Source of the DNA: an uncultured Verrucomicrobiota bacterium
GTDB lineage: Bacteria > Verrucomicrobiota > Kiritimatiellia > CAIKKV01 > CAITUY01
DNA: 28,131 bases
Assembly (NCBI GenBank): GCA_964609375.1
Contig: CAZSSA010000026.1
Span: 1-28,131 of the forward strand
Direction of reading: 5' to 3'
A program made the position numbers and the translations under genes. This document shows, piece by piece, positions 1,986-28,131 of the stretch (positions are counted from its first letter, which is position 1; each line of letters opens with the position of its first letter). The notes under the pieces are model-generated. The model was not told where the DNA came from. It saw nothing but the letters and a program-made list of their open reading frames with translations, and made no database searches.

Positions 1986-2272
1986 CGTTTTGCCTCCAGT
2001 CGTTTCACTCGTGAGTCGAGTTGATCAAGATCGCGTTCCAGGGTTGCTATTTTCTTTTCGAGATTTTGCAGCCGACGCTCGACGCTGTTCATGGCGGTGG
2101 GGGTTTGTAACGGGCGTCCAAGCCGGGTTTCCAGTTCCCCTGTGCGTTTTTCCAGTTTATCCAGGCGGGGGATGGTGGTGTCGGTGGTGACGGGCTCCAG
2201 TTCCTGGGCGACGACGGGCAGGGTCAGCAGAGCGGCCAGGATGAAGAGAAGCGGTGTTTTTTGTCGTTTCAT
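1982..2272 (-). CDS. small secreted coiled-coil protein
   Basis: 96 aa. Signal peptide MKRQKTPLLFILAALLTLPVVAQE, followed by heptad-like LDKLEKRTGELETRL...LQNLEKKIATLERDLDQLDSRVKRLEAKR. The start overlaps the stop of the giant upstream ORF (TAATG at 2270-2274). The stop overlaps the next gene's start (ATGA). Confidence 0.5.
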   Translation of the reverse strand: MKRQKTPLLFILAALLTLPVVAQELEPVTTDTTIPRLDKLEKRTGELETRLGRPLQTPTAMNSVERRLQNLEKKIATLERDLDQLDSRVKRLEAKR

Positions 2273-5625: not shown

Positions 5626-5650
5626 AAGCGTCTCCGAATGGGATGTTGAA

Positions 5651-7834
5651 TTAACGGCGTATTTCCAGCGGTTCGCTGCGCTGACTTTCGAGACCGTCGA
5701 CATCGATGGATGATATTTGAACGTTGAGTTTCGCGCCCACATTGGTTGCGTGCAGGGCGAATTCCGTTCCATCGGTATTGCCGAGCGAGGCGGCTCCAAG
5801 TCCCAGAACCCCTTTTTTCCATACCCGATACTGTTTGATGTCAGGTTGAGGCGGGGCGTTCCATGACAGCAGCGCCTGATTGTCGTTCCATGTGACTTTC
5901 ATGCCAGTTGGCGGGTGGGGGGCGGGCTTGGTGGCGCCTTGGACGGGGGTTGTCCATTCGCTCTCCAGGCGATCACCATCCAGGGCCTTGAGGCGGTATT
6001 CATAGGTCTTGCCGTCCGCCAGCCCTTCCTGAGTGGTTTCGACGGTCATGTCGCCCGAGGAGTCCACGCGGGCGATTTCATGGAACCGCCAGGCGCCGGT
6101 TTCGCGTCCTTCGACAATGTATTTCCTGATATCGGGTTCGGTGTTGGAGTTCCACTGCAGACGGATTTTGCGTGCGATGCCCCGTCCAACGGAAAGTCCG
6201 GCGGGGGGGCGGGGGGCGGGTTTTGTGGTGACGGTGACTTCCTGGCCGGGGCTTGAGCGGGTGTCGCCGAGATTGATCGCGGTGATTTGATAGCGATACA
6301 GGGTCCCGTCCTTCAGGTTGCCCAGATCGGCGGCATTCCGTACGCCGCCCCGATCCAGCCATGTGGTGCGGTTGCGGTCATGGAGGGTTTCGATTTCCGA
6401 GAAGGAGCCGTTGGCGCCTTCGGCGCGGGAGATGACGTAGCGATCCACTTTTTCATCGGCGGAGGCATTCCAGGAAAGGGGGACTTCGCGGGGGCGGGCG
6501 TCTTCGGCTTTCAGGCCGGAGACCATGGGCGGGGGAGAGCGGGTGGTGGCGGCAACGGCGGGGATGTCATCGCTGACGGCGCCGACTTCGTTCACGGCGC
6601 GGATCCGGTAGTGGTAGGTTTTGCCATCCTTGAGCTTACCCGGCTCGCGGCCGCCATCGGTAAAGGAGGTGGTGGCGGGGCCGCGGACGGACTCCACTTC
6701 GGTAAAGGGGCCTTCGTCCGACTCGGCACGGAGGATAACGTAGCGGATGATGCCGGGATCGGTGCTAGCGGTCCAGTTCAGGGGGACAATGCGAATCCAT
6801 TCACTTTCTGCAGTAAGACCGGCGACCGGGGATGGTGGAGGGGCTGTCATGGTTTCATGGATGACTGTGTAATCGCTTTGCAGGCCGGATTCGGCGATGG
6901 CGGCCATGCGATAGTAATAGGTGCTGCTGTCCTTGAGGGGGAGTGTGGAGCCTTTATCTATGAATGTGCGGCGGGAAGGGGCGACTTCGGCGATGGAGAT
7001 GAAGGTGCCGTTGCGGTTATCGGCGCGCTCGATACGATAACGCGAGGCGGTGGCATCGGCCGGGGCGTTCCAAGAAATCGTGGTCTGACGTAAGCCCATA
7101 TCCGACACCTTGAACCCGGACGGGGGAGGAGGGGGGAGGAGGCGCGGGGCTGGAGACGAAACGGCGGCCGACGGTGCGGGCGCCGGAAGGGCAGGAGAGG
7201 AGAGGGGTGATGGGCTGGCGGATACGGGCGCCCGCAGCGGGGAGGCCTTGATGCATTTCCATTTCTGATACAAGCCGGCGGCCATACTGTGGACCACGAT
7301 GCGTGCCTGTTCCGGGAGGGTGACATCGCTGTTATCCGCCCGCTTGGCGAGATCCACGCTGCACAGGACGCGGCCGCTTTTGCAGTCGATCATGCGCACG
7401 GAGACGCCCACGACGGGGATGGCGTTGCCGCGGCGGGCGATGGTGTTGTATTCATCCACGGTTCCGACCAGCACGGCGTCGGCACCCAGCATATTGCCCA
7501 CTTCGGCGGCCTTGCTTTCCGACAAGCCGGCGAGGGCGAGTTCGGATTCGCCCAGAACGTTGGCCATCTGACTGCGTTCGACGAGGTGGAACCGGTTCAT
7601 GTGCAGGAGTTCGGTGACGAACATATCGGAAACGGAGGTGCCGATGAGTTCAGTGGGCGCCTTGAACGGCATGATGGCCACTTTTTCCACGGGTGAGCCG
7701 GTGGGCGCCACATAAACGTTTGTTTTTGGATCGACGTTTTTAAAGTAGGACTCAAGGTTGTCGGTGGCGCAACCTGCCAGGTAAACAGCCGAGGCGATGC
7801 CGGTGGACAGTAAGAAAGCCCTATAAAACCGCAT
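5651..7834 (-). CDS. outer-membrane lipoprotein with an N-terminal CsgG-like domain followed by a Pro-rich linker and five fibronectin type III (FN3) repeats; first gene of the operon
   Basis: 727 aa. Lipobox LAGC (MRFYRAFLLSTGIASAVYLAGCATDN). The segment VAIMPFKAPTELIGTSVSDMFVTELLHMNRFHLVERSQMANVLGESELALAGLSESKAAEVGNMLGADAVLVGTVDEY matches the CsgG family signature closely. Five ~95-aa repeats of the type xxSWNAxxDxxxxRYxIxRAE..G.F..I, ending in Y.YR..A, are FN3-like. A good RBS (AAGGAAGGAG) precedes the ATG at 7834. Confidence 0.75.
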   Translation of the reverse strand: MRFYRAFLLSTGIASAVYLAGCATDNLESYFKNVDPKTNVYVAPTGSPVEKVAIMPFKAPTELIGTSVSDMFVTELLHMNRFHLVERSQMANVLGESELALAGLSESKAAEVGNMLGADAVLVGTVDEYNTIARRGNAIPVVGVSVRMIDCKSGRVLCSVDLAKRADNSDVTLPEQARIVVHSMAAGLYQKWKCIKASPLRAPVSASPSPLSSPALPAPAPSAAVSSPAPRLLPPPPPSGFKVSDMGLRQTTISWNAPADATASRYRIERADNRNGTFISIAEVAPSRRTFIDKGSTLPLKDSSTYYYRMAAIAESGLQSDYTVIHETMTAPPPSPVAGLTAESEWIRIVPLNWTASTDPGIIRYVILRAESDEGPFTEVESVRGPATTSFTDGGREPGKLKDGKTYHYRIRAVNEVGAVSDDIPAVAATTRSPPPMVSGLKAEDARPREVPLSWNASADEKVDRYVISRAEGANGSFSEIETLHDRNRTTWLDRGGVRNAADLGNLKDGTLYRYQITAINLGDTRSSPGQEVTVTTKPAPRPPAGLSVGRGIARKIRLQWNSNTEPDIRKYIVEGRETGAWRFHEIARVDSSGDMTVETTQEGLADGKTYEYRLKALDGDRLESEWTTPVQGATKPAPHPPTGMKVTWNDNQALLSWNAPPQPDIKQYRVWKKGVLGLGAASLGNTDGTEFALHATNVGAKLNVQISSIDVDGLESQRSEPLEIRR

Positions 7835-11956: not shown

Positions 11957-13156
11957 TTATTCGTTTCGCAAGGCTTCGGCGGGGGCGATGCGGGCGGCGG
12001 TTTTGGCGGGCAGATAACTGAACGCCAATCCGAGAAATAATCCGGCGACGGAGGGCATGAGGAGCACCATGGGACTGGTGGCGACGGGGATTGGAAGTTG
12101 TCCGCCGATGAGCGTAAGAATGATGACAGCGACGACGGTCCCGAGAAGGGTGGCGGAGAGGGTAAGCAGCAGCGATTCCATCAGGAACAGAAGACTGATA
12201 TCGAGCGTGGAAGCGCCCAGGGCGCGGCGGAGCCCGATTTCGGGGATGCGGGTCTGGATGTTGGCGAGCATGAGGCTCCCGAGCGTGATGCCTCCCATGA
12301 ACAGGCACAGCATGACAATGGCGCCGCCGGCAAGCATGATTAATCGGCGCAGGCTCAACAGGCGCGCTACCAGACTTTGGGGCGTTACCCATGAAACCGG
12401 TTCGGCGGTTTGCTCCGGATCGGCAAGCAGGTTGCGGGCGGACCGGAGTGTGGCGTCAAAGGTCCCGGCTTGTCCGCTGCGGATAAAGATGGCGTCGAGC
12501 CGTTCATCGGGAGGAATGGAATCGGATCGCCAGTAAGGCGGGACCGTCCACGGGATGATGATCAGGCGTTCTCCGGGGGCCAGGGCTTTCGATCCTGTTC
12601 CCGACGTGCTGCCTTCGGCGGTGATAATGCCAATGATACGGAAGACGACAGGGCCAAGGGTTATGGTATTGCCGAGGCCGAGGTGGAGTTCCCGGGCGAG
12701 TGTTTCTGAAAGTACCGCCACGGAGGAATGGTTGCGGATATCGGCGGCATCCAGCGGTCGACCGAGGCGGAGGGGCCAGGGGCGAACAGCAAAGCAGTTT
12801 TCATCGGCACCCAGGATGGTGGCGATGTGGCGGGAGGAATCCATTGGATAGGATTCCGAACGAATACCGGCGACGGTTGCGTCGGAAAGCGTTTGGCGCA
12901 GGAGGACGGCATGGCGCCGCGTGAGGGGTGCGGGGGATGGGGTCGTGGCTCCGGATGAGTCTTGAAGGATCGTGAAGACGTTTACCCCCAGCTCGGCGAT
13001 GGCGGTTTCCGTCTGGCGTTGCAACCCGACGACGAGGGATAGGAGCGTGGTGAGTGCCAGCATGCCCATGGCAATACCCGCGAATGGAAGGACGACCCGG
13101 ACAGGGTGGCGCCGGGCGCCTTCGCAGACATCCTGAAGCATGGGACGCCAGCGCAT
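11957..13156 (-). CDS. ABC transporter permease of the FtsX/MacB/DevC family
   Basis: 399 aa. It has an N-terminal TM, a large periplasmic domain, and three C-terminal TMs ending in the FtsX-like signature (...GLAFSYLPAKTAARIAPAEALRNE). Its start overlaps the ATPase stop. Confidence 0.85.
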   Translation of the reverse strand: MRWRPMLQDVCEGARRHPVRVVLPFAGIAMGMLALTTLLSLVVGLQRQTETAIAELGVNVFTILQDSSGATTPSPAPLTRRHAVLLRQTLSDATVAGIRSESYPMDSSRHIATILGADENCFAVRPWPLRLGRPLDAADIRNHSSVAVLSETLARELHLGLGNTITLGPVVFRIIGIITAEGSTSGTGSKALAPGERLIIIPWTVPPYWRSDSIPPDERLDAIFIRSGQAGTFDATLRSARNLLADPEQTAEPVSWVTPQSLVARLLSLRRLIMLAGGAIVMLCLFMGGITLGSLMLANIQTRIPEIGLRRALGASTLDISLLFLMESLLLTLSATLLGTVVAVIILTLIGGQLPIPVATSPMVLLMPSVAGLFLGLAFSYLPAKTAARIAPAEALRNE

Positions 13157-13848
13157 CAGGATGTCCTCCGTTCAGTCAGTGACCCGGCGTGGCATTCGAT
13201 GTGGCGGGTGGTGTGTTCCGCGAGGGCGGGGTTATGGGTGGCCATCATGATGGTGATGCCGGACTGATGGAGCCGCAGGAAATGATCCATGATGGCGGAT
13301 CCCGTGGCGGGATCGAGATTGCCGGTGGGTTCATCCACAAGCAGGAGGTCGGGAGGGAGGGCGATGGCGCGGGCGATGGCGACACGTTGCATTTCGCCGC
13401 CGGAGAGGAGCCGGGCCGGTTGGTCGGCGTGGGGCCCCATGTCCACGTGGGCAAGGGCGAGGCGGGCAAGGCGGAGCACCTCGTCGGGGGGGGTATCCAG
13501 ATAGCGGAACCGGAAGACGACATTTTCGAGAACCGTCCGGTGCGGGAGGAGGCAGAAGCGCTGGAAGACCATTCCGACCCGGCGCTTGCGCAATTCAATC
13601 CGTGCCGGTTCATCGACGGCCTGGACATCGTTGCCGGCAAGCAAGAGGCGGCCGGACGACGGTTGATCGAGCAAGGCGGCGAGGTTGAGGAGGGTGGTCT
13701 TGCCGGAGCCGGAGGGTCCCGTGATGGAGACGAATTCGCCGGCGTGGACGCGGAGGTTTATATTGCGGAGGACGGTCACCGGGCCGCGCGGCGAGGGGAA
13801 CGCCTTGGAGATATTCTCCATATGAAGGATCGGGTCCGGCGGGCTCAT
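13156..13848 (-). CDS. ABC transporter ATP-binding protein (MacB/LolD-like)
   Basis: Carries Walker A (GPSGSGKTT), the ABC signature (LSGGEMQRVAIARA) and Walker B (LLLVDEPTGNLD). Confidence 0.9.
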   Translation of the reverse strand: MSPPDPILHMENISKAFPSPRGPVTVLRNINLRVHAGEFVSITGPSGSGKTTLLNLAALLDQPSSGRLLLAGNDVQAVDEPARIELRKRRVGMVFQRFCLLPHRTVLENVVFRFRYLDTPPDEVLRLARLALAHVDMGPHADQPARLLSGGEMQRVAIARAIALPPDLLLVDEPTGNLDPATGSAIMDHFLRLHQSGITIMMATHNPALAEHTTRHIECHAGSLTERRTS

Positions 13849-15062
13849 GGGAGCAGGATCCGTTCGCCCGGTTTCACGCCGCCAAGGATCTCGAAGGAGG
13901 TTTCGTTGCCGATGCCAAGATCAAGACGGCGGGATTCGGTGCGACGAAACGTGCGTACCTTGCAGGAGGGGATCCCGCTCTCCCATTGCACGGCCTGGCG
14001 TGGCAGCAACACGGCGTTGGTGCGGGTGTGGGATTGGATGTTGATGGCGACGGACATACCGGGGCGGAGCCGGGAATCGGCCTGACCGATGCGGAGGGTG
14101 ACGAGAAAATATTTCTGCCACGACGGATAGCCGGGGCGGGACTGGGCGGTGGCGCTGACGTTTTCCACGGCACCCTGAAGGCGGAGGGAGGGATAAGCCA
14201 GCGGGGTGATGATGGCGGGGGCGGAGGGGGGAACGCGGGCGAGATCGGCTTCGGGGATAAAGGTTTGTGCGATGAACTCCCGGAGATCAGGGAGGCAGAG
14301 GAGGGGCTGGTTGGGGAAGACCGAGTCGCCGACGCGGATGGTGCGGTATTCCGTGCCGACGGGGACGGGCAGGTGAACGGCCAGCCCGGCGGCCGGGGCG
14401 CGGATGACGGCGTTGGAGAGTTGGCGGCAGGCGGCGTCGTATTGCCGCTGGGCGGCGTTACAGGCGGACCGGGCGCGGGCGAGGCGTGCGGGATGCAGAT
14501 GTTCCAGGGTCAGGGTGTGCTGCGATTCCAATTGATCGGCCTTGGCCTTGGAGACGGCGACACGGGACTCCTGTTGTTCCAGTTCGCGGCGGGCAAGGAG
14601 ATGGCGGTCCACAAGTTCCCTGGTATCGGCCAGTGCCTGTTGTTCGGAAACGGCGAGCGCGCGGAGTTCGCCGAGGCGCGCCTCGATATCGGCGCGCTCA
14701 ATCGGGATGTCCGCTTTTTCGAGGGCGTCCAGTTCGGCGCGGGAACGTGCAAGGTCATTGTTGAGTTTGACGAGATCGTTTTCGATATCCGAACTATCGA
14801 ACCGGAGAAGGACGTCGCCTTCGCGCACCTCGGCGCCATTGGGGATGATTTCGACAACGGTGGCCCGGCCCTGGAAGCGGGAGAAAATGGTTTCGGTGCG
14901 GCGTGCGTCCATGGTGCCGGTGCAGGGAGTCCAGACCTCAAGGGTGCCGCGGGTGACGGTGGCCTCACGGGGCCCCGAGGCTGATGCCGACGGGTTGGGT
15001 CGGCATGAGGTTAGCGGCAATGTGAACGCGAGGAGCAGGGTGGTCAGGAGTGCAGGGTTCAT
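13845..15062 (-). CDS. HlyD-family membrane fusion / periplasmic adaptor protein (DevB/MacA-like)
   Basis: 405 aa. It has an N-terminal signal/anchor and a long coiled-coil hairpin (LNNDLARSRAELDALEKADIPIERADIEARLGELRALAVSEQQ...). A C-terminal beta-barrel/MP domain follows. ATGA-type overlaps occur with both neighbouring genes. Confidence 0.85.
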   Translation of the reverse strand: MNPALLTTLLLAFTLPLTSCRPNPSASASGPREATVTRGTLEVWTPCTGTMDARRTETIFSRFQGRATVVEIIPNGAEVREGDVLLRFDSSDIENDLVKLNNDLARSRAELDALEKADIPIERADIEARLGELRALAVSEQQALADTRELVDRHLLARRELEQQESRVAVSKAKADQLESQHTLTLEHLHPARLARARSACNAAQRQYDAACRQLSNAVIRAPAAGLAVHLPVPVGTEYRTIRVGDSVFPNQPLLCLPDLREFIAQTFIPEADLARVPPSAPAIITPLAYPSLRLQGAVENVSATAQSRPGYPSWQKYFLVTLRIGQADSRLRPGMSVAINIQSHTRTNAVLLPRQAVQWESGIPSCKVRTFRRTESRRLDLGIGNETSFEILGGVKPGERILLP

Positions 15063-16504
15063 GGCATTGGTTCCATGGCGTTGGGTTTGAGATCGTTCGG
15101 AGAATCCGTAAGGGTGCCCATGAGCCGGAGCAGGGTATAGCCGGAAACGCAGACGGAGGCGCGGGCGGCGAGGAGAACCGATTCGGCTTCCACGTAGGCG
15201 GTTTCGGCGTCGGTCACGGAAAAGCTATCGCCGCGCCCCATCTCGAAAAGGCGGCGGGCGAGTTCCGAGCGGGCCTCGGCGGCGGCATAATTGCGGCCGG
15301 CGATGGAGAGTTCGCTGCGGGACTGACGGTAGGCGGATACGGCTTGTTGAACTTCGCGGGCGATGGAGAGGGCGCGGATGCCGATGGATTCCCGGGCGGC
15401 CTGGACGTCCACCTCGGAGATGTCGACCAGCGGTTTATTCCGTTTGCGGTTCAGATCGATTTGTCCGGCGAGTCCGACGGTCCAGAGGTTGTGATCCAGG
15501 TCCCTCGAGTCCTTGAAGGTGACGGCTTGCCCGTATTGTTCGTTGCCGGCGACGAGATTGACATCCGGTTGAAGGCGACGGCGGGCCAGTTTGGCGCCGC
15601 GGATGGCCGCGTGATAGTCCTGGATGAGCTGAGCGTAATCGAGGCGGTTGCTCAGGGCGGTCTGGACGGCGATATCCATGGGAGGGACGTCGAGATCCGG
15701 TAGCGGGGAGGGGGAGGGGGAGCAGTCGGTTTCGGGGGGGAGGCCGAGGAGTTCGGCGAGATTACGACGGGTGACGAACAGGGATTCGCGGTGATTTTCC
15801 AGGCGTGTTTCGGCCTGCCCCCGTTGGAGTTCCACACGGAGGGTATCCACGCGGGAGGCGCGGCCCTGTTGTTCCCGGGCACGGGTGAGTTCCAGAAGGC
15901 GGTTGGCGCGGGCGAACATGGCGGCGTCGCACGACACCTGTTTTTCGAGGCGGACGATGGATTCGAACTGGCGGGCGACGTCGACGATGAGGTCGGCCTT
16001 TTGAAGTTCCCAGTGGCGGCGTTCGGCGCGGTGTTGTTCGCCGGCGGCGGTCAGGGGTTCCTCATGGACGAGTCGTCCGAACCGCCGGAAGAGGGGTTGG
16101 CGCACATCCACTTTGACGGCTGAGCGCCAGGGTTCGTCCACGAAGGAGGGATAGCGGAGGACGCTGGCATCGACACCGATTTCGGTGCCCCAGACGAGTT
16201 TGCGTTCGGCGCGCATGCCATAGCGCCATTCGGTGTCGCTGTCGGTGGTGTTCACGGCGCCATGCGGGATGACGCCGGTGGCGAATTCCTCGCGGGCGGC
16301 CTTGACGCCGAGTTCAGTGCGGGTGACCGCAAGGGCGCCGCGGGCGAGTTGGCGATTATGATTGAGGGCGGCGTTAATGGCGGCGTCGAGGGTGAGTGGA
16401 GTTGAATTGGTGGGAGCGGCGGCGGCCAGACAGGTAGAGAGAATAAGTGCGGTGGCGAGGAGGCGGGTGACCCTGTGGATTCTGAATGGTTGTATGGCGG
16501 GCAT
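15059..16504 (-). CDS. TolC-like outer membrane efflux factor
   Basis: Two tandem OEP repeats with the typical LTLDAAINAALNHNRQLA start and coiled-coil helices. The ATG at 16504 is the likely start. It yields the signal peptide MPAIQPFRIHRVTRLLATALILSTCLAAAAP and is preceded by GAGGAA. The track ORF begins at an upstream TTG at 16543. Confidence 0.8.
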   Translation of the reverse strand: MPAIQPFRIHRVTRLLATALILSTCLAAAAPTNSTPLTLDAAINAALNHNRQLARGALAVTRTELGVKAAREEFATGVIPHGAVNTTDSDTEWRYGMRAERKLVWGTEIGVDASVLRYPSFVDEPWRSAVKVDVRQPLFRRFGRLVHEEPLTAAGEQHRAERRHWELQKADLIVDVARQFESIVRLEKQVSCDAAMFARANRLLELTRAREQQGRASRVDTLRVELQRGQAETRLENHRESLFVTRRNLAELLGLPPETDCSPSPSPLPDLDVPPMDIAVQTALSNRLDYAQLIQDYHAAIRGAKLARRRLQPDVNLVAGNEQYGQAVTFKDSRDLDHNLWTVGLAGQIDLNRKRNKPLVDISEVDVQAARESIGIRALSIAREVQQAVSAYRQSRSELSIAGRNYAAAEARSELARRLFEMGRGDSFSVTDAETAYVEAESVLLAARASVCVSGYTLLRLMGTLTDSPNDLKPNAMEPMP

Positions 16505-16564
16505 TTCCTCATGGCGGGTGTTGACCCGCACTCCAACTCTCAAATGACAGATTTCAGGTCCGAT

Positions 16565-17391: not shown

Positions 17392-18930
17392 CTATCGTGA
17401 ACGGGATTCCGGGGGCGCCATTTGAACATCCGCAGGCAGATCCTTGGGTTGCATCCATTCATCCTGCAAAGCGCCGTAATAATGAACCCGCACGAGGCAT
17501 CCGTAAAACTGGGCTTTCCGCTGGAGACCGGCAGGAACGCCATACGAGGCGGAGACGGTTTTGCTGGTCTTTTCGGGCCAGGCGCCCTGCAGGGGCGGGG
17601 GCGGTGTGATCGTGGCGGTCGTTGGGTGGATGAGGCCGGTGGCGAGGTCGCGGTCATAGAATCGGACGGTGATGGTGACGGCGGCGGCATCGATCATTTT
17701 TTCCTGGCTGGTGGCTTCGAGCGTGGTGGAGAGAATTCGCAATTCACTTTGTCCGGCGGATTCGGGGAATTTATTAATTTCCGTGGAGGTAATCTTGATG
17801 CGTCCTGAGAAGGGGAAGACATAGTGTTCGCGGGCGTTGGAAAGCTTTGTCAATTCAGCGCGGGCTTTTCCGGCGGCGGGGGAATCGGGTGCGCGGCGGA
17901 CCAGGGAGCTGAGCTGGGACATGGCCGGTTCCAGGCGTCCACGCTCGGCGAGGAGGCGGGCACGTTCGATATAGGACTCGGCGAAATCGGGGTCAACGCG
18001 CTGGATTCCGGCGAGGACCTGCTCGGCTTCGTCCGGTGACTGGTTGCTGGCGGCGGACCGTGCGTCGCTCATCATATCCCGAACGCGGGACTGCAGAATT
18101 TCGTTGGCGGCGGACTCGATTTCCTTTTTGGCCCGTTCCATCTCGGCGGCAGCGGAGTCGGTTCGCGACGTGGCGATGGCGGCCTCGGCGCTGATGAGGT
18201 CGGAAGAGGAGTTGGCTTGGGCGGCAATGGAAGAAGGGGAGGGAGAGCCGGAGTCTGCCAGCGGAATTGATGGAATATTGGTGATGGGGGATGTGGAAAT
18301 GACAGGGTTCAGGGTTGAGGGTTCGGGGTTGAGGGAGGGGAGGGGTTCCGTCTCGGGCTCGACTTCTATTGGAGGCGCCATGTTGACTGAGGCGGCGGAT
18401 GATGAGGTTGTGGCGGTCGGAGCAAGGGTTGGGGCTTTGCTGGTGACGACAGGCGGCGCCATTCGGGTGGTGGCTGGTTTTGTGCGGGAGCGAGCGGGCG
18501 GCGGGGTTATCTCGCGGCGGCAGCGCTGGGTGATGGAGGCCAGGATAATCAAGGCGATGACCACGCCGACGACTTTTTTCCACAGGCGGCGTTTGGCTTC
18601 CTGGGCTTCGCCGAGGACTTCTGCCTGGACGTATGCCTGGATCAGAAAGCGGGTGCGGCCGACTTCAACGACGTCGCCATGTTTGAGCTGGGCCTCGCGG
18701 GTTTCGCGGTTGTTGACGAGGATACGGTTCATGGAACCCAGGTCTCGAATGCGAAGGCCGTCGGGCGTGTGGGTGATTTCCGCATGCAGGGAGGCGATTT
18801 CGGTATCTTCAAAGCGGATGTCGCAGGCGGCGTCGCGTCCGATTTGCATGGGATCCGGCGCCACCGTGATGCGTTCCCCCCGGCGTTCCCCGTTTAAGAT
18901 GATGAGCCTGAAGATCATAGATGCGGGCAT
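17392..18930 (-). CDS. FHA-domain membrane protein: cytoplasmic FHA, single TM, Pro/Ser/Thr-rich periplasmic linker, and a C-terminal helical (TPR-like) domain
   Basis: The FHA signature is ITVAPDPMQIGRDAACDIRFEDTEIASLHAEITHTPDGLRIRDLGSMNRILVNNRE...GDVVEVGRTRF. The TM helix is KKVVGVVIALIILASI. The linker spans about 120 aa and is rich in P/S/T/A. Likely start ATGs are at 18930 or 18918. The track ORF begins at 18990. Confidence 0.75.
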   Translation of the reverse strand: MPASMIFRLIILNGERRGERITVAPDPMQIGRDAACDIRFEDTEIASLHAEITHTPDGLRIRDLGSMNRILVNNRETREAQLKHGDVVEVGRTRFLIQAYVQAEVLGEAQEAKRRLWKKVVGVVIALIILASITQRCRREITPPPARSRTKPATTRMAPPVVTSKAPTLAPTATTSSSAASVNMAPPIEVEPETEPLPSLNPEPSTLNPVISTSPITNIPSIPLADSGSPSPSSIAAQANSSSDLISAEAAIATSRTDSAAAEMERAKKEIESAANEILQSRVRDMMSDARSAASNQSPDEAEQVLAGIQRVDPDFAESYIERARLLAERGRLEPAMSQLSSLVRRAPDSPAAGKARAELTKLSNAREHYVFPFSGRIKITSTEINKFPESAGQSELRILSTTLEATSQEKMIDAAAVTITVRFYDRDLATGLIHPTTATITPPPPLQGAWPEKTSKTVSASYGVPAGLQRKAQFYGCLVRVHYYGALQDEWMQPKDLPADVQMAPPESRSR

Positions 18931-19138
18931 ACTACACAAGGTGGGTGTGTGGGGGAAAGAGCGAAAATCGGGCAACGGCGATTCAGGCACTGGGGAGGGG
19001 CCGACCTAGTTCTGTCCCTGCGGCCTGGCGATTCGAGTCGCCGGAGCCAGCGTGACGATTGGGTAGTGTTACTTGTTGATTCCGCTGACCCTAGCGCCCG
19101 CTCACCGCTCACATAACGGATAAAAGGATATTGCCATT

Positions 19139-19435
19139 TTGCACATCGAGTCTATCATTAAGGGCATGATAAGCGTAGACGACAGCAAGACAATTAGGGA
19201 ATTGGCGGCAAAATACTCGCTGAAAAAAGTTCTCCTGTTTGGTTCGGCCGCCAGGAAAGACAGCGGATATGGCGACATTGATCTCGCCATTGAAGGTATC
19301 CGCCCACAGGAGTTTTTCCGCTTTTATGGGGAACTGATGAGTCGCCTGTCTGTGCCGGTTGACGTGATGGATTTGTCCAAGCCCAAGCGATTCTCCCGAA
19401 TGGTGAGCCGGGAAGGGATTTTGATTTATGGCTGA
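19139..19435 (+). CDS. MNT-type minimal nucleotidyltransferase (antitoxin partner of HepT)
   Basis: Contains LLFGSAARKDSGYGDIDLAIEG, the GSx9-13DxD nucleotidyltransferase motif. It is about 98 aa long. The track start at 19139 is a TTG. It overlaps the downstream HEPN gene by 8 bp. Confidence 0.8.
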   Translation: MHIESIIKGMISVDDSKTIRELAAKYSLKKVLLFGSAARKDSGYGDIDLAIEGIRPQEFFRFYGELMSRLSVPVDVMDLSKPKRFSRMVSREGILIYG

Positions 19436-19868
19436 ACTAAGGGAATGTGTGGAGGCGGAGGAGGAAAATATTCGGTATGCGTTAAGGCAACTGCCGAATG
19501 TTGATCGACTAAGCACATTGTCTGACTTGGAACTCGCTGGTACGGCGGCGTTATTGCACAGCATCTATAACGGCCTTGAAAATGTATTGAAGCAGGTGAT
19601 TCAGGGAGTGGGTGGCGATGTTCCGACAGGGTCAACTTGGCATCGGGATTTGTTGCTTCAAGTACAGGCTTGCCACATTTTGGCACAGGTGACGGTGGAT
19701 GCCCTTCGGCCATTTATGGCGTTTCGGCATTTTTTCAGTCATGCCTATGTATTGGATTTGGACCCCGCCCGTATGGAGTTATTGGTTGGTACGGCTAAGC
19801 AGGTTGTTGATCAGGTCCTTATTGAGGTATTGGCGCATATCAACAGCGCAAAAGGTTCTGGAACCTGA
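19428..19868 (+). CDS. HepT-like HEPN-domain toxin
   Basis: 146 aa, all-helical, carrying the RHFFSHAY (Rx4HxY) HEPN catalytic motif near the C-terminal third. It sits directly downstream of, and overlapping, the MNT gene. Confidence 0.75.
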   Translation: MAELRECVEAEEENIRYALRQLPNVDRLSTLSDLELAGTAALLHSIYNGLENVLKQVIQGVGGDVPTGSTWHRDLLLQVQACHILAQVTVDALRPFMAFRHFFSHAYVLDLDPARMELLVGTAKQVVDQVLIEVLAHINSAKGSGT

Positions 19869-23218: not shown

Positions 23219-23962
23219 TCACCAGAATTGGTAGGCGGCGAAGGCCAGGACGTAGAGGCCGAGCAGGAAGTTGGTCGTCATATGCGCGATGACGGCGGCG
23301 GTGAGATCGCGGGTACGCAGATAAAGGGCGCCATAGGCCAGACCGGCGAGGATTCCCACGAGCCAGCGATCATGTTCCATGCCGAACAAGACGGCGGTCA
23401 GCAGGAACATGCCGAGGTGGATGGGGCGTTCGGGGACAGAGAGGAAGGAGCGGTTGATCATCCACCGGTAGAGGAATCCGCGCCAGAAGTATTCCTCGGC
23501 GGCGGCGATGACGAGGGTGGAGCCGGTGAGACGGATGAGGGTCAGGGTCCAGCCGCAGATTTCGGGGGCGGAGGGGTGGGTGGCCTCGATACCGGTGATG
23601 ACGCCGAGAGGGCGGATGCCGAACCGGAGGTAGAGGTCATTGAGGTAGGGGTAATGGTAGATCCAAGGCAATTCAGGGCCGATCCATACGATGAAGACCC
23701 CGATGCCGACAGCGATGGCGAGGGGGAGGTACCGGATGTTGAGGGGACGATAGAAGCGCCAGGGGCGGAGCGTCAGGAGCAAACAGGCGACGACAACGGT
23801 CTGGAGGGCATAGCGCCAGGGCAAGGACGGCAAAGGGATCATCATGATGCCGAGCCAGGCGATGAATGGCGCAGCGTGGGCCCATATGGCTTGATTACTG
23901 TTCGGTGTTGGAGCTGGCGAATCCATACGCGGTATGATGCGGGAAGTGATGGAGAAAAACAA
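23219..23962 (-). CDS. CPBP (CAAX/Abi) family intramembrane metalloprotease
   Basis: Multi-TM protein with motif 1 AAEEYFWRGFLY, motif 2 FGMEH, and motif 3 AVIAHMTTNF. Confidence 0.85.
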   Translation of the reverse strand: MFFSITSRIIPRMDSPAPTPNSNQAIWAHAAPFIAWLGIMMIPLPSLPWRYALQTVVVACLLLTLRPWRFYRPLNIRYLPLAIAVGIGVFIVWIGPELPWIYHYPYLNDLYLRFGIRPLGVITGIEATHPSAPEICGWTLTLIRLTGSTLVIAAAEEYFWRGFLYRWMINRSFLSVPERPIHLGMFLLTAVLFGMEHDRWLVGILAGLAYGALYLRTRDLTAAVIAHMTTNFLLGLYVLAFAAYQFW

Positions 23963-24327
23963 GGGGATCTGGATGGTGCCAAATCCCCGCCCAAGAACGT
24001 TTTGGCGATGCCTTGATATAATTGAGGTATAAGATAAGGTTCAAGAACGGGTGAGTCCTGGAGAATCTAGAAGGAAAAGCCGTTGCCGACGAGGAGGTTC
24101 AGTTGATAGATTTCGCGCGAGACCGGCAGGCATCACGCTGCGCGATCGGAGCATAATCAACGGGGCGTGAGCGTGATTAAATGCGGAGTACGCCGCGGAG
24201 GGAGTCGGAAGATAACATCCCGAACGGTGTCGCAGAGTACGCTCGCAAGCTCGCGCCCGTGAACGCCAATGTTCCTGGTGGATGTCGTCATTTGTAGAAA
24301 CACAACGTGGAGGCCTACTTGAATACG

Positions 24328-25629
24328 ATGAAATGGATGATTGTGACAGCCGTGTTGGTCGTGATGGGGAGAATGGCTGGAATGGCCGGAGAAAAGGATT
24401 TGTCTCCCGGGCAGGTGACACGCGTGGCCTGTGACCTGAACGCCAAGCCGAATGCTGTTGTTATTTTCAAGGGCACATCGGAAGACACCGGAACCGCCAG
24501 GCAAACGAAGGATTTTCACTACGATGTGTATTTGCCTTCCGACTACGGGAATGACAGCGCGGCATTCCATCCCGCCATGTTCATCGCCTCGCCCGGCGGA
24601 AATGCCGGAATGGGCGCGATGGGAACGCGGCTCAAGAAGGACGGATGGATTGTCATCATGCTGGTGGAATCGAAGAACGGTAATCGCGAATGGCTGAACA
24701 ACTTCCTGGCCGCCCATGATGACGCCGTCCAACGTTTCCGAATTGCCCCTGGCGCGAAATTCGCCACTGGCATGTCTGGTGGCGCCCGGTGCGCATCCAT
24801 GTATCCGCTGACGCGGCCTGGATTTCGCGGTGTCGTATTGCAGGCGGCGGGTTTCGCGGACGGGTTCATCCATCTGGAGTTCACTACCCGCAAGAAGGAT
24901 GTGTTTTCGCGGTATCCTCCGCACACGCTGGTTGCCGCAACATTTGGGGACAAGGATGCCAATCTGTTTGAATCTTTTGAAATTCGCAGGCTGTTGCCGG
25001 CGGGATGCCAAAGGCATGTGGAGGTGTTTCAGGGGGGGCATGAGTGGTGCCCCGCCACTGTTTTTGACCGCACCCTGGATTGGATCGAGGACCAGGCGTT
25101 TTTAGCAAAACCGGCCATGACAGGACCCTGCCGGTTGCTCGGACTTGACGTGCGAGCCGAGCCAATGAGCCAGGCTGGCTACCTTTGGTTCTTTCGCTTG
25201 ACCCAGGCCAGAGCCGAAACCGCCCAATTACCGGCGGCGAAGTATCGGCAACTTGAGCGTCTGCCCATCATCGCCAGGAATGGCAATTTGAGTGGTGTGC
25301 CTGCGGTTCGCGCAACGCTTTCCCAGATCGAGCCGCTGCTGAGAGAGCTGTCGCTAACGCCGGAAGTTCAGGAACTGGTCAAAGCCAGACAGGCACATGC
25401 CCGCGCCATGCAAGCATACAGCAAGTTTGAAACCTCCTTGATGAGGGGGGGCTGGGAGTTCCGCTCCACTCGTGTTTCAGCGATGGAACTCAAGGATTTG
25501 CAGGCCTTTTTCTCCGAGAGCGGAAAGGTTCTCGCCAAGTACGCGGAATCGCCAGAAGTAGCTCAACTGCGTTGTCTGAACGATTCGTTGAAGCTGGAGT
25601 TTTCCGGACCCGGGGCAAAGCAGTTGTAA
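24328..25629 (+). CDS. secreted alpha/beta-hydrolase fold esterase-like protein with a C-terminal helical extension
   Basis: Signal peptide MKWMIVTAVLVVMGRMAGMAG. The nucleophile elbow is GMSGG (GxSxG). The candidate Asp lies in FGDKDAN and the candidate His in QGGHEW. The track ORF begins at an upstream GTG at 24307. GC content is lower than in the flanking core genes. Confidence 0.6.
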   Translation: MKWMIVTAVLVVMGRMAGMAGEKDLSPGQVTRVACDLNAKPNAVVIFKGTSEDTGTARQTKDFHYDVYLPSDYGNDSAAFHPAMFIASPGGNAGMGAMGTRLKKDGWIVIMLVESKNGNREWLNNFLAAHDDAVQRFRIAPGAKFATGMSGGARCASMYPLTRPGFRGVVLQAAGFADGFIHLEFTTRKKDVFSRYPPHTLVAATFGDKDANLFESFEIRRLLPAGCQRHVEVFQGGHEWCPATVFDRTLDWIEDQAFLAKPAMTGPCRLLGLDVRAEPMSQAGYLWFFRLTQARAETAQLPAAKYRQLERLPIIARNGNLSGVPAVRATLSQIEPLLRELSLTPEVQELVKARQAHARAMQAYSKFETSLMRGGWEFRSTRVSAMELKDLQAFFSESGKVLAKYAESPEVAQLRCLNDSLKLEFSGPGAKQL

Positions 25630-25632
25630 TGA

Positions 25633-26505
25633 TGGTTTTTTTCCTATGATGCCAACGGGAACCTCACGGACCTTGTGGGGATGGACGGCGCCGTGGCCGC
25701 CCACTACGAGTATGATCCTTATGGGAACACGATTGCCAAGTCCGGCGCACTCGCCGATGTGAATCCGTTCAGGTTCTCGACGAAGTATTTCGATTCTGAG
25801 ACTTCGTTCTACTACTACGGCCACAGATATTACAGCCCGGGGTTGGGGAGGTGGGCCAGTCGCGATCCTATCGAGGACTCCGGATTTAGGCGCATGAGGT
25901 CGCTTCAGGGTGCTATCTCAAAAACAAAGCGAAGAACAAGAGATGATCATGACCGCCTGGCTAGCAAGATGTCGCAACTAGTTGCACTTCTTCAGAAGAA
26001 CGGTCAAATCCCTGCAGTAAATTGGTTGCGTCAGCATTTCCCGAGTGCTTCACGTAACTGCAAAGCACCGAACATGCGGCGCAGTCTGCGGCTTTCTCTG
26101 GATCCCTATGTCTTTGTGTCTAATCGGCCTGTGCTCTGGGTTGACCCGCAGGGACTCATCCGTTTCGTTTGGGGGCCTGTGCCTTTGCCGAATGATGACC
26201 CATGGTACGAAGAACCAAGTCCTTGGCCGTCTGATCCTCCCCCTCCCCCCGAACCAGGAACCTGCGATGATCCAGCCACATGTGCAGGTGGCTCAGTAGG
26301 ACCACAAGACGACCTGTGCAGTGTGCCCTTTATTGGATGTTTCATGGATCTACATCCAGGAATCCTGCAGTGCTGTAAGGATCACGATAACTGTTACGGC
26401 AACAATGACTGCAACGCCTGTTCCTGGTTTTCGGACTGCGGCAGCGAGGGGTGTAAGGACTGCAACAGGACAGTGGTTGACTGTATTATCGATGCAATAC
26501 TATGA
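25633..26505 (+). CDS. orphan RHS C-terminal tip: the end of the RHS repeat-associated core (YD repeats, DPxG motif) fused to a phospholipase-A2-like Cys-rich toxin domain
   Basis: The frame opens right after a TGA at 25630, with no upstream rhs body. The first in-frame starts are GTG 25675 and ATG 25681. The sequence is FFSYDANGNLTDLVGMDGAVAAHYEYDPYGN...NPFRFSTKYFDSETSFYYYGHRYYSPGLGRWASRDPIEDSG, which is the canonical RHS core end. A ~215-aa C-terminal domain follows, ending CCKDHDNCYGNNDCNACSW...C..C. The CCxxHDxCY motif is the secreted PLA2 His-Asp active-site motif. Confidence 0.7.
   Translation, partial: WFFSYDANGNLTDLVGMDGAVAAHYEYDPYGNTIAKSGALADVNPFRFSTKYFDSETSFYYYGHRYYSPGLGRWASRDPIEDSGFRRMRSLQGAISKTKRRTRDDHDRLASKMSQLVALLQKNGQIPAVNWLRQHFPSASRNCKAPNMRRSLRLSLDPYVFVSNRPVLWVDPQGLIRFVWGPVPLPNDDPWYEEPSPWPSDPPPPPEPGTCDDPATCAGGSVGPQDDLCSVPFIGCFMDLHPGILQCCKDHDNCYGNNDCNACSWFSDCGSEGCKDCNRTVVDCIIDAIL
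25819..25870 (+). repeat. direct repeat (copy 1) shared with 27794-27845; a likely homologous-recombination substrate for RHS tip displacement
   Basis: By eye, 44 of 51 nt are identical between the two RHS core-end segments. The repeats flank the toxin-immunity module. Confidence 0.6.
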
Positions 26506-27692
26506 GCCACCGTTATAACGTTATATCCATACTGGCAGAGAGAATTCGATGTGGTTTTGCGTTGCTTCTAGCCTTCTGCTCCGTCTGTCTTGCCCACGAA
26601 CCGCAAATGCCGCAAGACGGTGCTGAACTCTGCAACAAGCTTGGCTACGATGCCACTCTTTTCTACACTTCAACAAAACTTGAACTTGTTTACTCCATGA
26701 GGATGCTACCCTTGGGAACTATGCCATCAAGTGGTGTCTTGGCCGCCACAAAAGGTGGCGTCTGCTGGTTCTCCGAACAAGGGCAACTCATCAAAACCAT
26801 CCAATATGCAACTCGCGAGCGTCCATGGGACGTCACGATTCTTAATGCTCTATCTGAAAACGAGATTCGCTTTCTCGGGACTCTCCCGGATCAAGGTCGT
26901 ACGGTTTTGTATGGTATCGATGGGGATGTCGTCATTAATCTGGCGGGGGGTTACTATACCCATGCCCGCATGGGAGATGTGAATGGTGACGGTTTCCAAG
27001 AATTCGTAGTCTCTTCAAAGCATGGCCTCACGATATTTGATTCTTCTGGAAAGTGGATCGGTTTCACCTCAGTTCCGAATTTGGACGTCGACTTTCATCT
27101 CACAGATGTCGATGCAGATGGGTCGTGCGAAATCATTGTGCGAACCTACGAGAAACAACGTAGAGATTGCATTCGAATTATCGATGCGCAAGGGAAACTT
27201 GTCAGTTCGTGGGTTCCCGACTTCCGTTTCTACAGTTTTGAGGTTGTACGTTGGCCCTCTTGGGATAAGGCGAGACTGCTCTTCCTCAACGGCGACGCGA
27301 TTGTCTTGACGGACACCGACGGCAAGAATTGTATGTCATTAGTCGCGCCAAAGGGGAGTAGGGTTGCCCGAGTCGTTGCCGAGACGTTGAACATTGGCGA
27401 ATCCAAGGAAGCATTACTGTGTGTGGCATCGGCTCGTGTCGGTGGCCCGCATATTGTATACATTTGGTCAGGTGATGGTGAGTTGCTCTATCAACGGCTC
27501 ATGGTGGATAGCGGGCTTTCTATTCTCGTGCCATCACGCATTGACACGAAAGCAAGGCAGTGCTTCTTTGTGGGGAGTAGGAATCGCATTTGGAAATACG
27601 GGCCGGGTTTGAAGCAGCAACCGGGGCCAATGGGGTCGCCCATCACTTCACAGAGTAATGAGGCGGACAAAGCGGATGTCATAGCTCACTGA
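26502..27692 (+). CDS. putative cognate immunity protein, FG-GAP/beta-propeller-like, with an N-terminal signal/lipoprotein-like segment
   Basis: The ATG overlaps the toxin stop (ATGA at 26502-26505). It is 396 aa long. The N-terminal hydrophobic segment is GFALLLAFCSVCLA. Repeated motifs MGDVNGDGFQEFVV and DVDADGSCEIIV are FG-GAP/VCBS-like, about 50 aa apart. GC is visibly lower than the core genome. Confidence 0.55.
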   Translation: MSHRYNVISILAERIRCGFALLLAFCSVCLAHEPQMPQDGAELCNKLGYDATLFYTSTKLELVYSMRMLPLGTMPSSGVLAATKGGVCWFSEQGQLIKTIQYATRERPWDVTILNALSENEIRFLGTLPDQGRTVLYGIDGDVVINLAGGYYTHARMGDVNGDGFQEFVVSSKHGLTIFDSSGKWIGFTSVPNLDVDFHLTDVDADGSCEIIVRTYEKQRRDCIRIIDAQGKLVSSWVPDFRFYSFEVVRWPSWDKARLLFLNGDAIVLTDTDGKNCMSLVAPKGSRVARVVAETLNIGESKEALLCVASARVGGPHIVYIWSGDGELLYQRLMVDSGLSILVPSRIDTKARQCFFVGSRNRIWKYGPGLKQQPGPMGSPITSQSNEADKADVIAH

Positions 27693-27694
27693 TT

Positions 27695-27916
27695 ATGTCC
27701 TACACATACACACTTGAACCCCAAAACGCCTGGCCTGCAAAATCTTTTGCAGGGCCGAAAACGCATACCCCCGGTTCACGGGTGAAGAATCTCGGCCACA
27801 GATATTACAGTACAGGGTTGGGGAGGTGGATCAGCCGCGATCCGTTGGGGGAGGAAGTATTTCTGCGGGGGTATGTAGAGGCAAGCGGTTCCCGTACCAC
27901 ACGTTCCTGCGGCTGA
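27695..27916 (+). pseudogene. second orphan RHS core-end remnant, truncated after about 19 aa of C-terminal tip
   Basis: Encodes ...KNLGHRYYSTGLGRWISRDPLGEEVFLRGYVEASGSRTTRSCG*. The DNA is about 86% identical over 51 bp to 25819-25870 of the first RHS tip (ggccacagatattacag...gggttggggaggtgg...cgcgatcc). It abuts an integrase fragment. Confidence 0.55.
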
Positions 27917-28131
27917 TCCATGCCACGGCCCGGCGCGCCGGCCTGCCGGCCAACGTCACGCCCCACACGTTGCGTCGCTCATGCACCACCGAGTTGTTGC
28001 GCGGCGGGGCCAACATGTACCACGTCAAGGAACTGCTCGGCCACGAGTCGCTCGACACCCTCAAGCACTACGCCAAGCTCACGATCCTCGACCTCAAGAA
28101 GGAGCACCAGCGCTGCCATCCCAGGGAACGG
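27898..28131 (+). pseudogene. tyrosine recombinase / phage integrase C-terminal catalytic fragment; the 5' end is missing and the 3' end runs off the window
   Basis: The frame reads ...HTFLRLIHATARRAGLPANVTPHTLRRSCTTELLRGGANMYHVKELLGHESLDTLKHYAKLTILDLKKEH. It contains the HxLR box, the LLGH box and the catalytic Tyr region (KHYAKLT) of XerC/D-type recombinases. In-frame sequence upstream of about 27895 is unrelated and has no start codon. Confidence 0.6.

Follow-up and report, generated by a model that had tools for sequence, protein, structure and literature searches.

Which kind of toxin is encoded by the cysteine-rich end of a displaced rearrangement hotspot (RHS) reading frame at nucleotides 25633–26505 (+) of contig CAZSSA010000026.1, from an uncultured Verrucomicrobiota bacterium? 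A preliminary description of this 28,131-nucleotide stretch of DNA (the window) had proposed an RHS-delivered toxin of the phospholipase A2 (PLA2) type. We find that nucleotides 25633–27692 are an orphan (displaced) RHS toxin-immunity cassette and that the cysteine-rich domain at its tip represents a real, widespread, and unannotated bacterial toxin family. Judged by sequence, this domain most probably belongs to the secreted His-Asp PLA2 superfamily as a very distant and minimal member; its nearest measurable relatives are the animal enzymes of groups XII and I/II. An orphan RHS toxin-immunity cassette with a PLA2-superfamily tip is the best overall explanation of the locus, and we assign it a probability of roughly 0.6.

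A conserved cysteine-rich domain at the C-termini of RHS proteins

The translation of the open frame reads WFFSYDANGNL...RDPIEDSG...CCKDHDNCYGNNDCNAC...DAIL*, and its segments follow one another in the order WFFSYDANGNLTDLVG…YYGHRYYSPGLGRWASRDPIEDSG…SNRPVLWVDPQGL…CCKDHDNCYGNNDCNACSW…CKDCNRTVVDCIIDAIL*. The box that had first suggested a PLA2, CCxxHDxCY, is present as CCKDHDNCY and is not a product of chance: from six-frame residue frequencies, the pattern CC..HD.C[YF] is expected ∼5e-5 times in the window and is observed once. The additional cysteines that had been noted around the box are present as well, with 13 cysteines in the last 89 amino acids. The box forms part of a 66-amino-acid domain with the pattern QDxxC[ST]xP ... 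CCxxHDxCY ... CNxxSW ... CxxCNx5C, in which His251 is the putative catalytic residue and Asp252 the putative calcium-binding residue (H50 and D51 in domain numbering). In secreted PLA2s, the catalytic box carries His48, Asp49, and Tyr52 on a helix.

Relatives of the domain were collected from protein and genome sequences. A phmmer search with the last 89 amino acids against 1.84 billion cluster representatives (50% identity clusters) yielded 106 proteins at E ≤ 1e-3 with 37%–54% identity, three of which are repeat artefacts. Among the 103 HMMER relatives, a set not selected for the motif, 92 carry the CC..HD.C box. A word-indexed protein search gave no match when the 115-amino-acid tip was the query, and only nine proteins when a profile of the family alignment (alignment A1, 71 sequences) was used. 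At the DNA level, a hand-made degenerate pattern that encodes CCxxHDxC[YF]x4CNxxSW matched 71 stretches of GTDB species-representative genomes, with ∼0.01 expected by chance according to our own estimate. A genome scan with back-translated tip peptides returned 48 stretches, none of which is real.

The carriers are mostly Acidobacteriota, but also include Beta- and Gammaproteobacteria, Desulfobacterota, Myxococcota, Nitrospirota, Verrucomicrobiota, and Planctomycetota. Cultured organisms are represented, among others, by Thiobacillus denitrificans DSM 12475, Terriglobus albidus DSM 26559, and two Sorangium strains; Sorangium cellulosum So0157-2 is a cultured carrier. In nearly all relatives the domain is found at the extreme C-terminus, typically 76–150 amino acids past the RHS motif DPxGL. 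Two of the collected loci, L016 and L030, are full-length carriers with DUF6531, 9–10 RHS repeats, and an RHS core. The search of family members thereby supports the earlier view of the cysteine-rich end as a conserved toxin-type domain at RHS C-termini.

Some carriers are secreted proteins of non-RHS architecture, such as P0038, which has a VWD domain, and Vicinamibacterales proteins of roughly 400 amino acids. In P0038 (690 amino acids), P0104, P0091, and P0102 the PLA2-like domain stands at the N-terminus or inside the protein, and in P0038 it is followed by the von Willebrand D domain. Given this placement in a few proteins, the module is not confined to RHS tips.

Conservation within the family is centered on the cysteines and the box. 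In alignment A1, residues C28, C46, C47, H50, D51, C53, C59, C73, and C83 are invariant, and Y54, S63, W64, C76, and N77 are conserved at ≥90%. The His and Asp of the box are likewise invariant in 156 of 156 nonredundant sequences, a set that was selected for the motif, and the box Tyr is present in 141 of them. Positions outside the selection pattern are also nearly fixed in this set (Q24, D25, C28, C73, C76, N77, and C83). The cassette copy has kept every family-invariant residue. Neither Pfam nor NCBIfam has a model for the domain, and literature searches for this domain family found nothing specific.

An insertion splits the RHS core-end motif

That the frame is RHS in its N-terminal part had been recognized correctly before. 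The strongest match is to TIGR03696 (Rhs_assc_core; E = 1.4e-20), which comes in two matched stretches and places amino acids 27–84 on model positions 1–55 of 76. NF041261 (RHS_core) aligns to the cassette at model positions 1161–1240 of 1261, and RHS_repeat is matched as well.

The preliminary description had placed a tip of ∼215 amino acids directly after RDPIEDSG. However, RDPIEDSG (amino acids 77–84) is the first half of the core-end motif, and the proposed boundary is off by ∼100 amino acids. The true end motif, SNRPVLWVDPQGL, stands after an insertion and follows the canonical pattern …LYxYVxNNPxxxxDPxGL, with DPQGL at amino acids 171–175. In the cassette, the stretch from GRW to DPQGL measures 104 amino acids, compared to 34–35 in canonical relatives. 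A tblastn alignment with residues 1137–1277 of the full-length RHS protein P0031 covers nucleotides 26020–26499. Because the canonical end motif lies at amino acids 156–175, the tip left by cleavage is 115 amino acids long (nucleotides 26158–26502), and not ∼215. It is composed of a 49-amino-acid linker and the 66-amino-acid conserved domain. The linker (amino acids 176–224) is unconserved in alignment A1 and has a low predicted local distance difference test score (pLDDT, 54–56) in an AlphaFold2 model. Autoproteolytic cleavage after DPQGL is predicted by extension from established RHS biochemistry, in which cleavage occurs after DPxGL.

The insertion itself (amino acids 85–155) is basic and probably helical, and it matches no protein family, the Pfam scores being at the level of noise. 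An insertion of ∼70 amino acids in the core is typical of the lineage. Widened spans of 50–100 amino acids between GRW and DPxGL are found in P0008, P0009, P0015, P0023, P0075, and L041, which carry the same toxin family; L041 is a Kiritimatiellia metagenome-assembled genome (MAG). For genome annotation, these examples mean that a large insertion can split the RHS cleavage motif, and toxin boundaries are therefore misplaced.

The cassette is an orphan RHS module

The cassette frame opens right behind TAA TGA (25627–25632), the stop of the open reading frame (ORF) at 24307–25629. No start codon is present at the frame opening, and the earliest candidates are GTG at 25675 and ATG at 25681. When three full-length RHS proteins were used as tblastn queries, RHS sequence was detected in the window only at 25.6–26.5 kb and, as a small fragment, at 27.8 kb. 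Nucleotides 1–25632 contain none, and thus the 25 kb upstream hold no shell, N-terminal domain, or main rhs gene. Since the frame opens after a stop and no RHS sequence precedes it, we conclude that the locus is an orphan C-terminal cassette. Only one RHS repeat is present, and both the RHS/YD shell and the N-terminal secretion or plug domain of a complete RHS polymorphic toxin are absent. The features of orphan rhs modules are all found here: a core fragment, a tip, and a candidate immunity gene, with no start or N-terminus and with repeated core sequence nearby.

The repeated sequence lies in a second, truncated core fragment. A direct repeat of 75 nucleotides (25818–25892 and 27793–27867), 77% identical, is common to both core fragments. 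The presence of a second fragment 2 kb downstream shows that the locus has been rearranged through core sequence. This second fragment is broken by a putative tyrosine-recombinase fragment that extends past the end of the window. Across the cassette, the G+C content falls from ∼0.60 to 0.50–0.53. A scan of the window for tRNA genes found none.

Probable relationship to secreted phospholipases A2

Several comparisons were made between the domain and known protein families. With the isolated domain as query, PF06951 (PLA2G12) is the sole Pfam match (E = 0.0027, 18.1 bits). When 71 family members were scanned singly, PF06951 was matched by 16 (best E = 7.8e-5), PF00068 by 10, and PF05826 by one. 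PF06951 and PF00068 are the only Pfam families matched by more than two of the 71 members. A comparison with PF00068 and PF09056 had been suggested at the outset and gave a divided answer: the 10 matches to PF00068 exist but are below the cut-off, and none of the 71 members matches PF09056.

A profile of the family was also compared with all PDB sequences (177,635 sequences, among them at least 153 distinct PLA2 sequences). Eight weak matches were obtained, the best with an E-value of 0.16, and seven of the eight are PLA2s. The best of these alignments, to 3v9m_A, extends from the calcium-loop region through CCxxHDxCY and places CnakvvkC on CDAAAAKC. No match was found when the tip was searched against PDB with phmmer. 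In profile–profile comparisons with hhalign, the match to group XIIA secreted PLA2 (sPLA2), represented by 18 verified PF06951 proteins, has a probability of 90.6% and an E-value of 1.3e-6 over 32 columns. This alignment places QDxxC[ST]xP…CCxxHDxCY on PPNGCGSP…CCNQHDRCY. For bovine PLA2, represented by a sequence that is a 100% match to 1BP2, the probability is 88% over the box (15 columns).

The spacing of the cysteines provides a further point of comparison. A spacing of seven residues separates C46 from C53 and C76 from C83, and the sums 46+83 and 53+76 are equal (129). Equal sums are likewise seen in bovine PLA2 (44+105 = 51+98) and in group XIIA (106+131 = 113+124). As far as can be predicted from spacing, the cysteine register matches the two-helix disulfide staple of PLA2s (44–105 and 51–98), and C28 would fit Cys29, the partner of Cys45. 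The AlphaFold2 model built with the family alignment has a mean pLDDT of 83.9 and a predicted template modeling score of 0.75, with pLDDT values of 84–97 over residues 21–89. Long helices at residues 41–56 and 71–88 hold the box and the staple cysteines with pLDDT above 90. From the single sequence, only a poor model was obtained (pLDDT 47).

Partner genes and the likely site of action

The 396-codon gene downstream is intact, and its start overlaps the toxin stop by four nucleotides (ATGA). Only one homolog of its product was found among the collected loci, in L047 (a Tepidisphaeraceae MAG, Planctomycetota), where it is encoded directly 3′ of a short RHS-fragment/PLA2-like gene. Identity between the two loci is 42% for the tips and 26% for the downstream proteins, the latter over about 350 amino acids (BLASTP E = 2e-29). 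A downstream immunity-like gene is thus present, and its pairing with the tip is kept in another genome.

Other loci carry different partners. At ≥27 loci the next gene encodes a lipoprotein of 130–180 amino acids with a [DE]SRLPxW motif, and at about 23 loci it encodes a multi-transmembrane protein of 100–145 amino acids. Neither set belongs to a Pfam family, and both are candidate new immunity families. Members of the lipoprotein family show the longer motif [DE]SxFxLAx[DE]SRLPxW (loci L005–L078, for example L023, L009, and L031).

The eight conserved cysteines and the envelope location of the partners suggest that the domain acts in an oxidizing compartment, on or near membranes, as would fit a lipase. 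Sec-type signal peptides, recognized by eye, open four full-length relatives (P0008, P0049, P0073, and P0094). A reading specific to a type VI secretion system (T6SS) was considered and rejected because neither the window nor the full-length relatives that were tested showed PAAR, VgrG, or other T6SS genes.

Proposed mechanism and alternative explanations

The cassette comprises ∼84 amino acids of RHS core, the ∼70-amino-acid insertion, DPQGL, and the 115-amino-acid tip, whose last 66 amino acids are a small domain with four predicted disulfides. In the mechanism that we propose, the tip of full-length relatives would be held inside the RHS shell and freed by cleavage after DPxGL. The freed tip would then enter an oxidizing compartment, either the target periplasm or the extracellular space, and fold with its disulfides. 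There, His251 would serve as the general base and Asp252 would hold calcium, leading to the hydrolysis of membrane phospholipids. The producer would be shielded by the secreted or periplasmic product of the gene at 26502–27692. The cassette copy itself is probably silent unless recombined into a full-length rhs gene through conserved core sequence, and the repeated core could allow such reactivation.

A number of observations weigh against this explanation, some of which concern the locus and others the domain. Regarding the locus, the cassette copy has no recognizable start, shell, or secretion signal, and no full-length rhs gene is found in the window. Promoter and terminator scans of the window gave matches at chance level. 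The candidate immunity role of the downstream gene is suggested by its position and by a single conserved pairing. Regarding the domain, the 18.1-bit match to PF06951 must be set against a gathering cut-off of 34, and all Pfam scores obtained are below their cut-offs. The hhalign matches are short and are largely carried by the CCxxHDxCY box. Comparison of alignment A1 with four group XIII/XIV PDB sequences gave a probability of only 0.3% (E = 0.18). The position of Asp99, the partner of His48 that PLA2s carry in the C-[D/N]-x5-C helix (their third helix), is occupied by Asn in 152 of 156 sequences, by Asp in three, and by Glu in one. The Gly-rich calcium loop (x-C-G-x-G-G), which in PLA2s is joined to the CC doublet by a disulfide, is absent, and a conserved QDxxC[ST]xP is found 18–19 residues before the CC doublet. 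Finally, fold searches against solved structures found no PLA2.

The locus-level observations are those expected if this copy were a decaying relic that has been displaced and is never expressed or delivered. Such a relic would lack a start at the frame opening, an RHS shell or secretion domain, and a main rhs gene within 25 kb. It would also be compatible with promoter-like sites at chance level and with a second fragment broken by a recombinase remnant. The term RHS-delivered, used in the preliminary description, does not hold for this copy, which has neither a shell nor an N-terminus nor a clear start codon. However, the 290-codon frame is intact and keeps all family-invariant residues, and the 396-codon gene, with its four-nucleotide overlap, is intact as well. 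Furthermore, orphan rhs modules, reportedly described in Salmonella by Koskiniemi and colleagues, are said to be reservoirs that recombination can reactivate. We regard decay as an unlikely account of the cassette, although one with a real claim to consideration.

The observations on the domain bear on a different explanation, which is that the tip, although a true warhead of a polymorphic toxin, is no phospholipase. In that case the CCxxHDxCY box would be convergent, or would be kept for another type of hydrolysis, for metal binding, or for non-enzymatic membrane damage. The last of these activities is known from Lys49 PLA2 homologues. Consistent with this explanation are the fold searches, which did not return a PLA2, the subthreshold scores, the Asn in place of Asp99, the noncanonical calcium loop, and the lack of likeness to the established bacterial PLA2 type. 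Against it stand the fixed His and Asp in the 156 sequences, although these were selected for the motif, and the CC..HD.C box in 92 of 103 unselected matches. The cysteine register would match that of PLA2s at four predicted disulfides, the weak database matches are almost all PLA2s, and the hhalign probability for group XII reaches 90.6%. A warhead of this other kind is thus rather doubtful, and we lean toward the view that the domain works as a phospholipase.

The fold similarity anticipated in the preliminary description was not obtained as far as the searches were run, with group XII outside the comparison; to our knowledge, no group XII PLA2 structure has been solved. The designation as a PLA2-type toxin is borne out in part: the sequence comparisons favor secreted PLA2s only, whereas the Pfam scores, the Asn at the Asp99 position, and the missing Gly-rich calcium loop do not conform. 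Because the profiles lend support but the fold search, the Asp99 position, and the calcium loop do not, we use the label “PLA2-like” for the domain.

That the tip is an anti-eukaryotic effector instead of an interbacterial toxin is improbable. In favor of such a role, sPLA2-type enzymes are classic animal venom and host-defense toxins, and Sec signal peptides, not T6SS adaptor domains, stand at the start of several full-length relatives. Against it, a small envelope protein is encoded in tight linkage at the 3′ side of nearly every locus, which is the hallmark of self-protection in bacterial competition, and the carriers are bacteria that live freely in soil and sediment.

Features of the locus and other genes of the window

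Coordinates of the cassette and of the features next to it are collected in Table 1.

Table 1. Features of the orphan cassette and its surroundings (positions in the window)
Feature	Position	Strand	Basis or remark
Secreted 440-aa protein, GMSGG (GxSxG) motif	24307..25629	+	No Pfam/NCBIfam match
Fragment of the RHS core, first half (aa 1-84), with one repeat, YDANGNL; core to YYGHRYYSPGLGRWASRDPIEDSG	25633..25884	+	TIGR03696, NF041261, RHS_repeat
Insertion of ~70 aa (aa 85-155) dividing the core-end motif	25885..26097	+	GRW-to-DPQGL span
Core-end motif, second half, LDPYVFVSNRPVLWVDPQGL (aa 156-175)	26098..26157	+	Motif position; tblastn; TIGR03696
Pro-rich linker of the tip, 49 aa (aa 176-224), two non-conserved Cys	26158..26304	+	AlphaFold2, alignment A1
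Conserved 66-aa Cys-rich PLA2-like domain (aa 225-290) and stop	26305..26505	+	Family alignment, AlphaFold2, hhalign
CCKDHDNCY box (aa 247-255)	26371..26397	+	Aligned to CCQTHDNCY (bovine PLA2) and CCNQHDRCY (group XIIA)
Asn278 (N77 in domain numbering), Asp99 position in the C-[D/N]-x5-C helix	26464..26466	+	HMMER alignment to 3v9m_A
Candidate immunity gene, 396 aa, N-terminal signal peptide, weak FG-GAP repeats	26502..27692	+	ORF; FG-GAP_3 E 7.5e-5, below cut-off
Second orphan RHS-core fragment, truncated (…HRYYSTGLGRWISRDPLGEE…)	27695..27916	+	TIGR03696 E 5.6e-7; tblastn
Candidate tyrosine recombinase, C-terminal fragment (HTLRRS…LLGHESL…HY)	27889..28131	+	Frame translation; family by eye from R-H-R-Y-type motifs

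Two genomes have the gene for the 440-amino-acid protein linked to RHS-PLA2-like loci. The homolog of the protein lies at 2076–3248 of L043 (a Chthoniobacter MAG; tblastn E = 5.8e-52, 39% identity), two genes past an RHS-PLA2-like tip, a match that also hints at a Verrucomicrobiota-like source of the window. The protein may be a linked hydrolase, such as a lysophospholipase, or a mere syntenic neighbor outside the system. A fusion of this ORF with the RHS fragment was considered and rejected: the two share a frame, but two stops stand between them, and the L043 homolog is a separate gene.

The other genes of the window are ordinary chromosomal genes, among them an SDR gene, a glycosyltransferase gene, a uridine-kinase-like gene, a DUF2851 gene, and a gene for a CPBP protease. 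The last encodes a CPBP/Rce1-like intramembrane protease on the opposite strand, just upstream of the cassette region (23219–23962, –). This protein family is often tied to bacteriocin self-immunity. Overlapping genes at 19139–19435 and 19428–19868 (+) form a Polbeta/MNT nucleotidyltransferase and HepT-like pair in the style of a type VII toxin-antitoxin system, within a patch of low G+C content. An efflux operon of the MacAB/TolC type (MacB/ABC/HlyD/OEP) occupies 11957–16543. It is adjoined, together with a GT2 glycosyltransferase gene, by a gene at 17392–18990 (–) whose product has an FHA/YscD-cytoplasmic-like domain, a long Pro/Ser/Thr-rich linker, and a C-terminal TPR region.

Two further proteins have uncommon features. 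The ORF at 2272–5799 (–) encodes 1175 amino acids with a signal-like N-terminus, a C-terminal zinc-ribbon-like cluster (CPxC…CPxC), and no Pfam match. Its very long body is of low complexity and rich in K, D, E, Q, N, G, and A, with an AT skew of –0.4 to –0.5. In the 727-amino-acid protein encoded at 5651–7834 (–), a CsgG-like domain is joined to two fibronectin type III domains, an unusual arrangement.

Comparison with known systems

PLA2 domains have been predicted before in polymorphic toxins. The Tox-PLA2 domains of RHS and ALF polymorphic toxins share the fold of 1KP4 and carry the motifs DxC[ST] and CxxHxxxYxN (Zhang, Aravind et al. 2012; PMC3482391). Both these domains and the present family place a warhead of the PLA2 type C-terminally on RHS or filamentous toxins, have a D-x-C-[ST] ahead of CxxHD…Y, and occur in many phyla. 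In contrast, members of the present family are half as large and have eight conserved cysteines, a CC doublet, and the CY of animal sPLA2s. The family also shows no measurable affinity to the Streptomyces violaceoruber type (1KP4, PF09056, groups XIII–XIV): the hhalign probability is 0.3%, none of the 71 members matches PF09056, and 1KP4 is absent from the PDB matches. Membership in PF09056 or Tox-PLA2 was therefore rejected. The PLA2-type warheads predicted in 2012 were of the Streptomyces-like type only, from which the present family is distinct in its sequence features.

The closest likeness is to the group XII sPLA2s (PF06951, human PLA2G12A), which gave the best profile match. As far as the alignment shows, in both a C-x-x-P loop stands in place of the Gly-rich calcium loop, 18–19 residues lead to the CC doublet, and CCxxHDxCY is joined by a short link to the C-[D/N]-x5-C helix, with no beta-wing. 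The group XII enzymes differ in being metazoan proteins of 190 amino acids with Asp on helix 3, whereas here 66 amino acids with Asn form the tip of a toxin. With the group I/II sPLA2s (PF00068; bovine 1BP2 and snake venom enzymes) the domain shares an identical CCxxHDxCY pattern, and seven of its eight weak PDB matches are to this group. Its cysteines would map on the disulfides 29–45, 44–105, 51–98, and possibly 61–91.

These likenesses permit a more specific, though tentative, proposal to which we give a little less than even odds. The tips may form an undescribed, widespread bacterial family of minimal animal-type sPLA2 domains (∼65 amino acids, four disulfides) whose kinship with metazoan groups XII and I/II exceeds that with bacterial and fungal groups XIII and XIV, and that serves as interchangeable warheads paired with at least three unrelated envelope immunity families. 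If so, no smaller PLA2 catalytic core would be known, and the family would be a candidate for a bacterial relative of the group XII sPLA2s of animals. If the domain is an active lipase, it would define a new class of membrane-targeting antibacterial effectors with three new immunity families. It would also offer a minimal PLA2 scaffold stapled by disulfides, which is of interest to enzyme designers, and a bacterial link to group XII sPLA2, which is itself of poorly known origin and structure.

With regard to its mode of action, the system resembles the Tle phospholipase effectors of the T6SS, which act in the periplasm and are countered by periplasmic Tli immunity proteins. Among them, Tle1–4 are large lipases of the alpha/beta-hydrolase type, and Tle5 is a phospholipase D. 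The scheme proposed here, a lipid-hydrolyzing antibacterial effector in the periplasm with a periplasmic or lipoprotein immunity partner, would be shared with the Tle/Tli pairs. The folds are unrelated, and T6SS genes, PAAR, and VgrG were seen neither in the window nor in the relatives tested.

In genetic organization, the cassette corresponds to the orphan rhs modules of Enterobacteria. These modules consist of a core-end fragment, a tip, and an immunity gene, with no N-terminal shell and with repeated core available for recombination. The same layout is found here, and the differences are that no main rhs gene is located upstream in the window and that ∼70 amino acids are inserted at the core end. 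In itself, the cassette is an ordinary orphan rhs module, and its warhead belongs to an unannotated, widespread family that resembles a minimal animal-type sPLA2.

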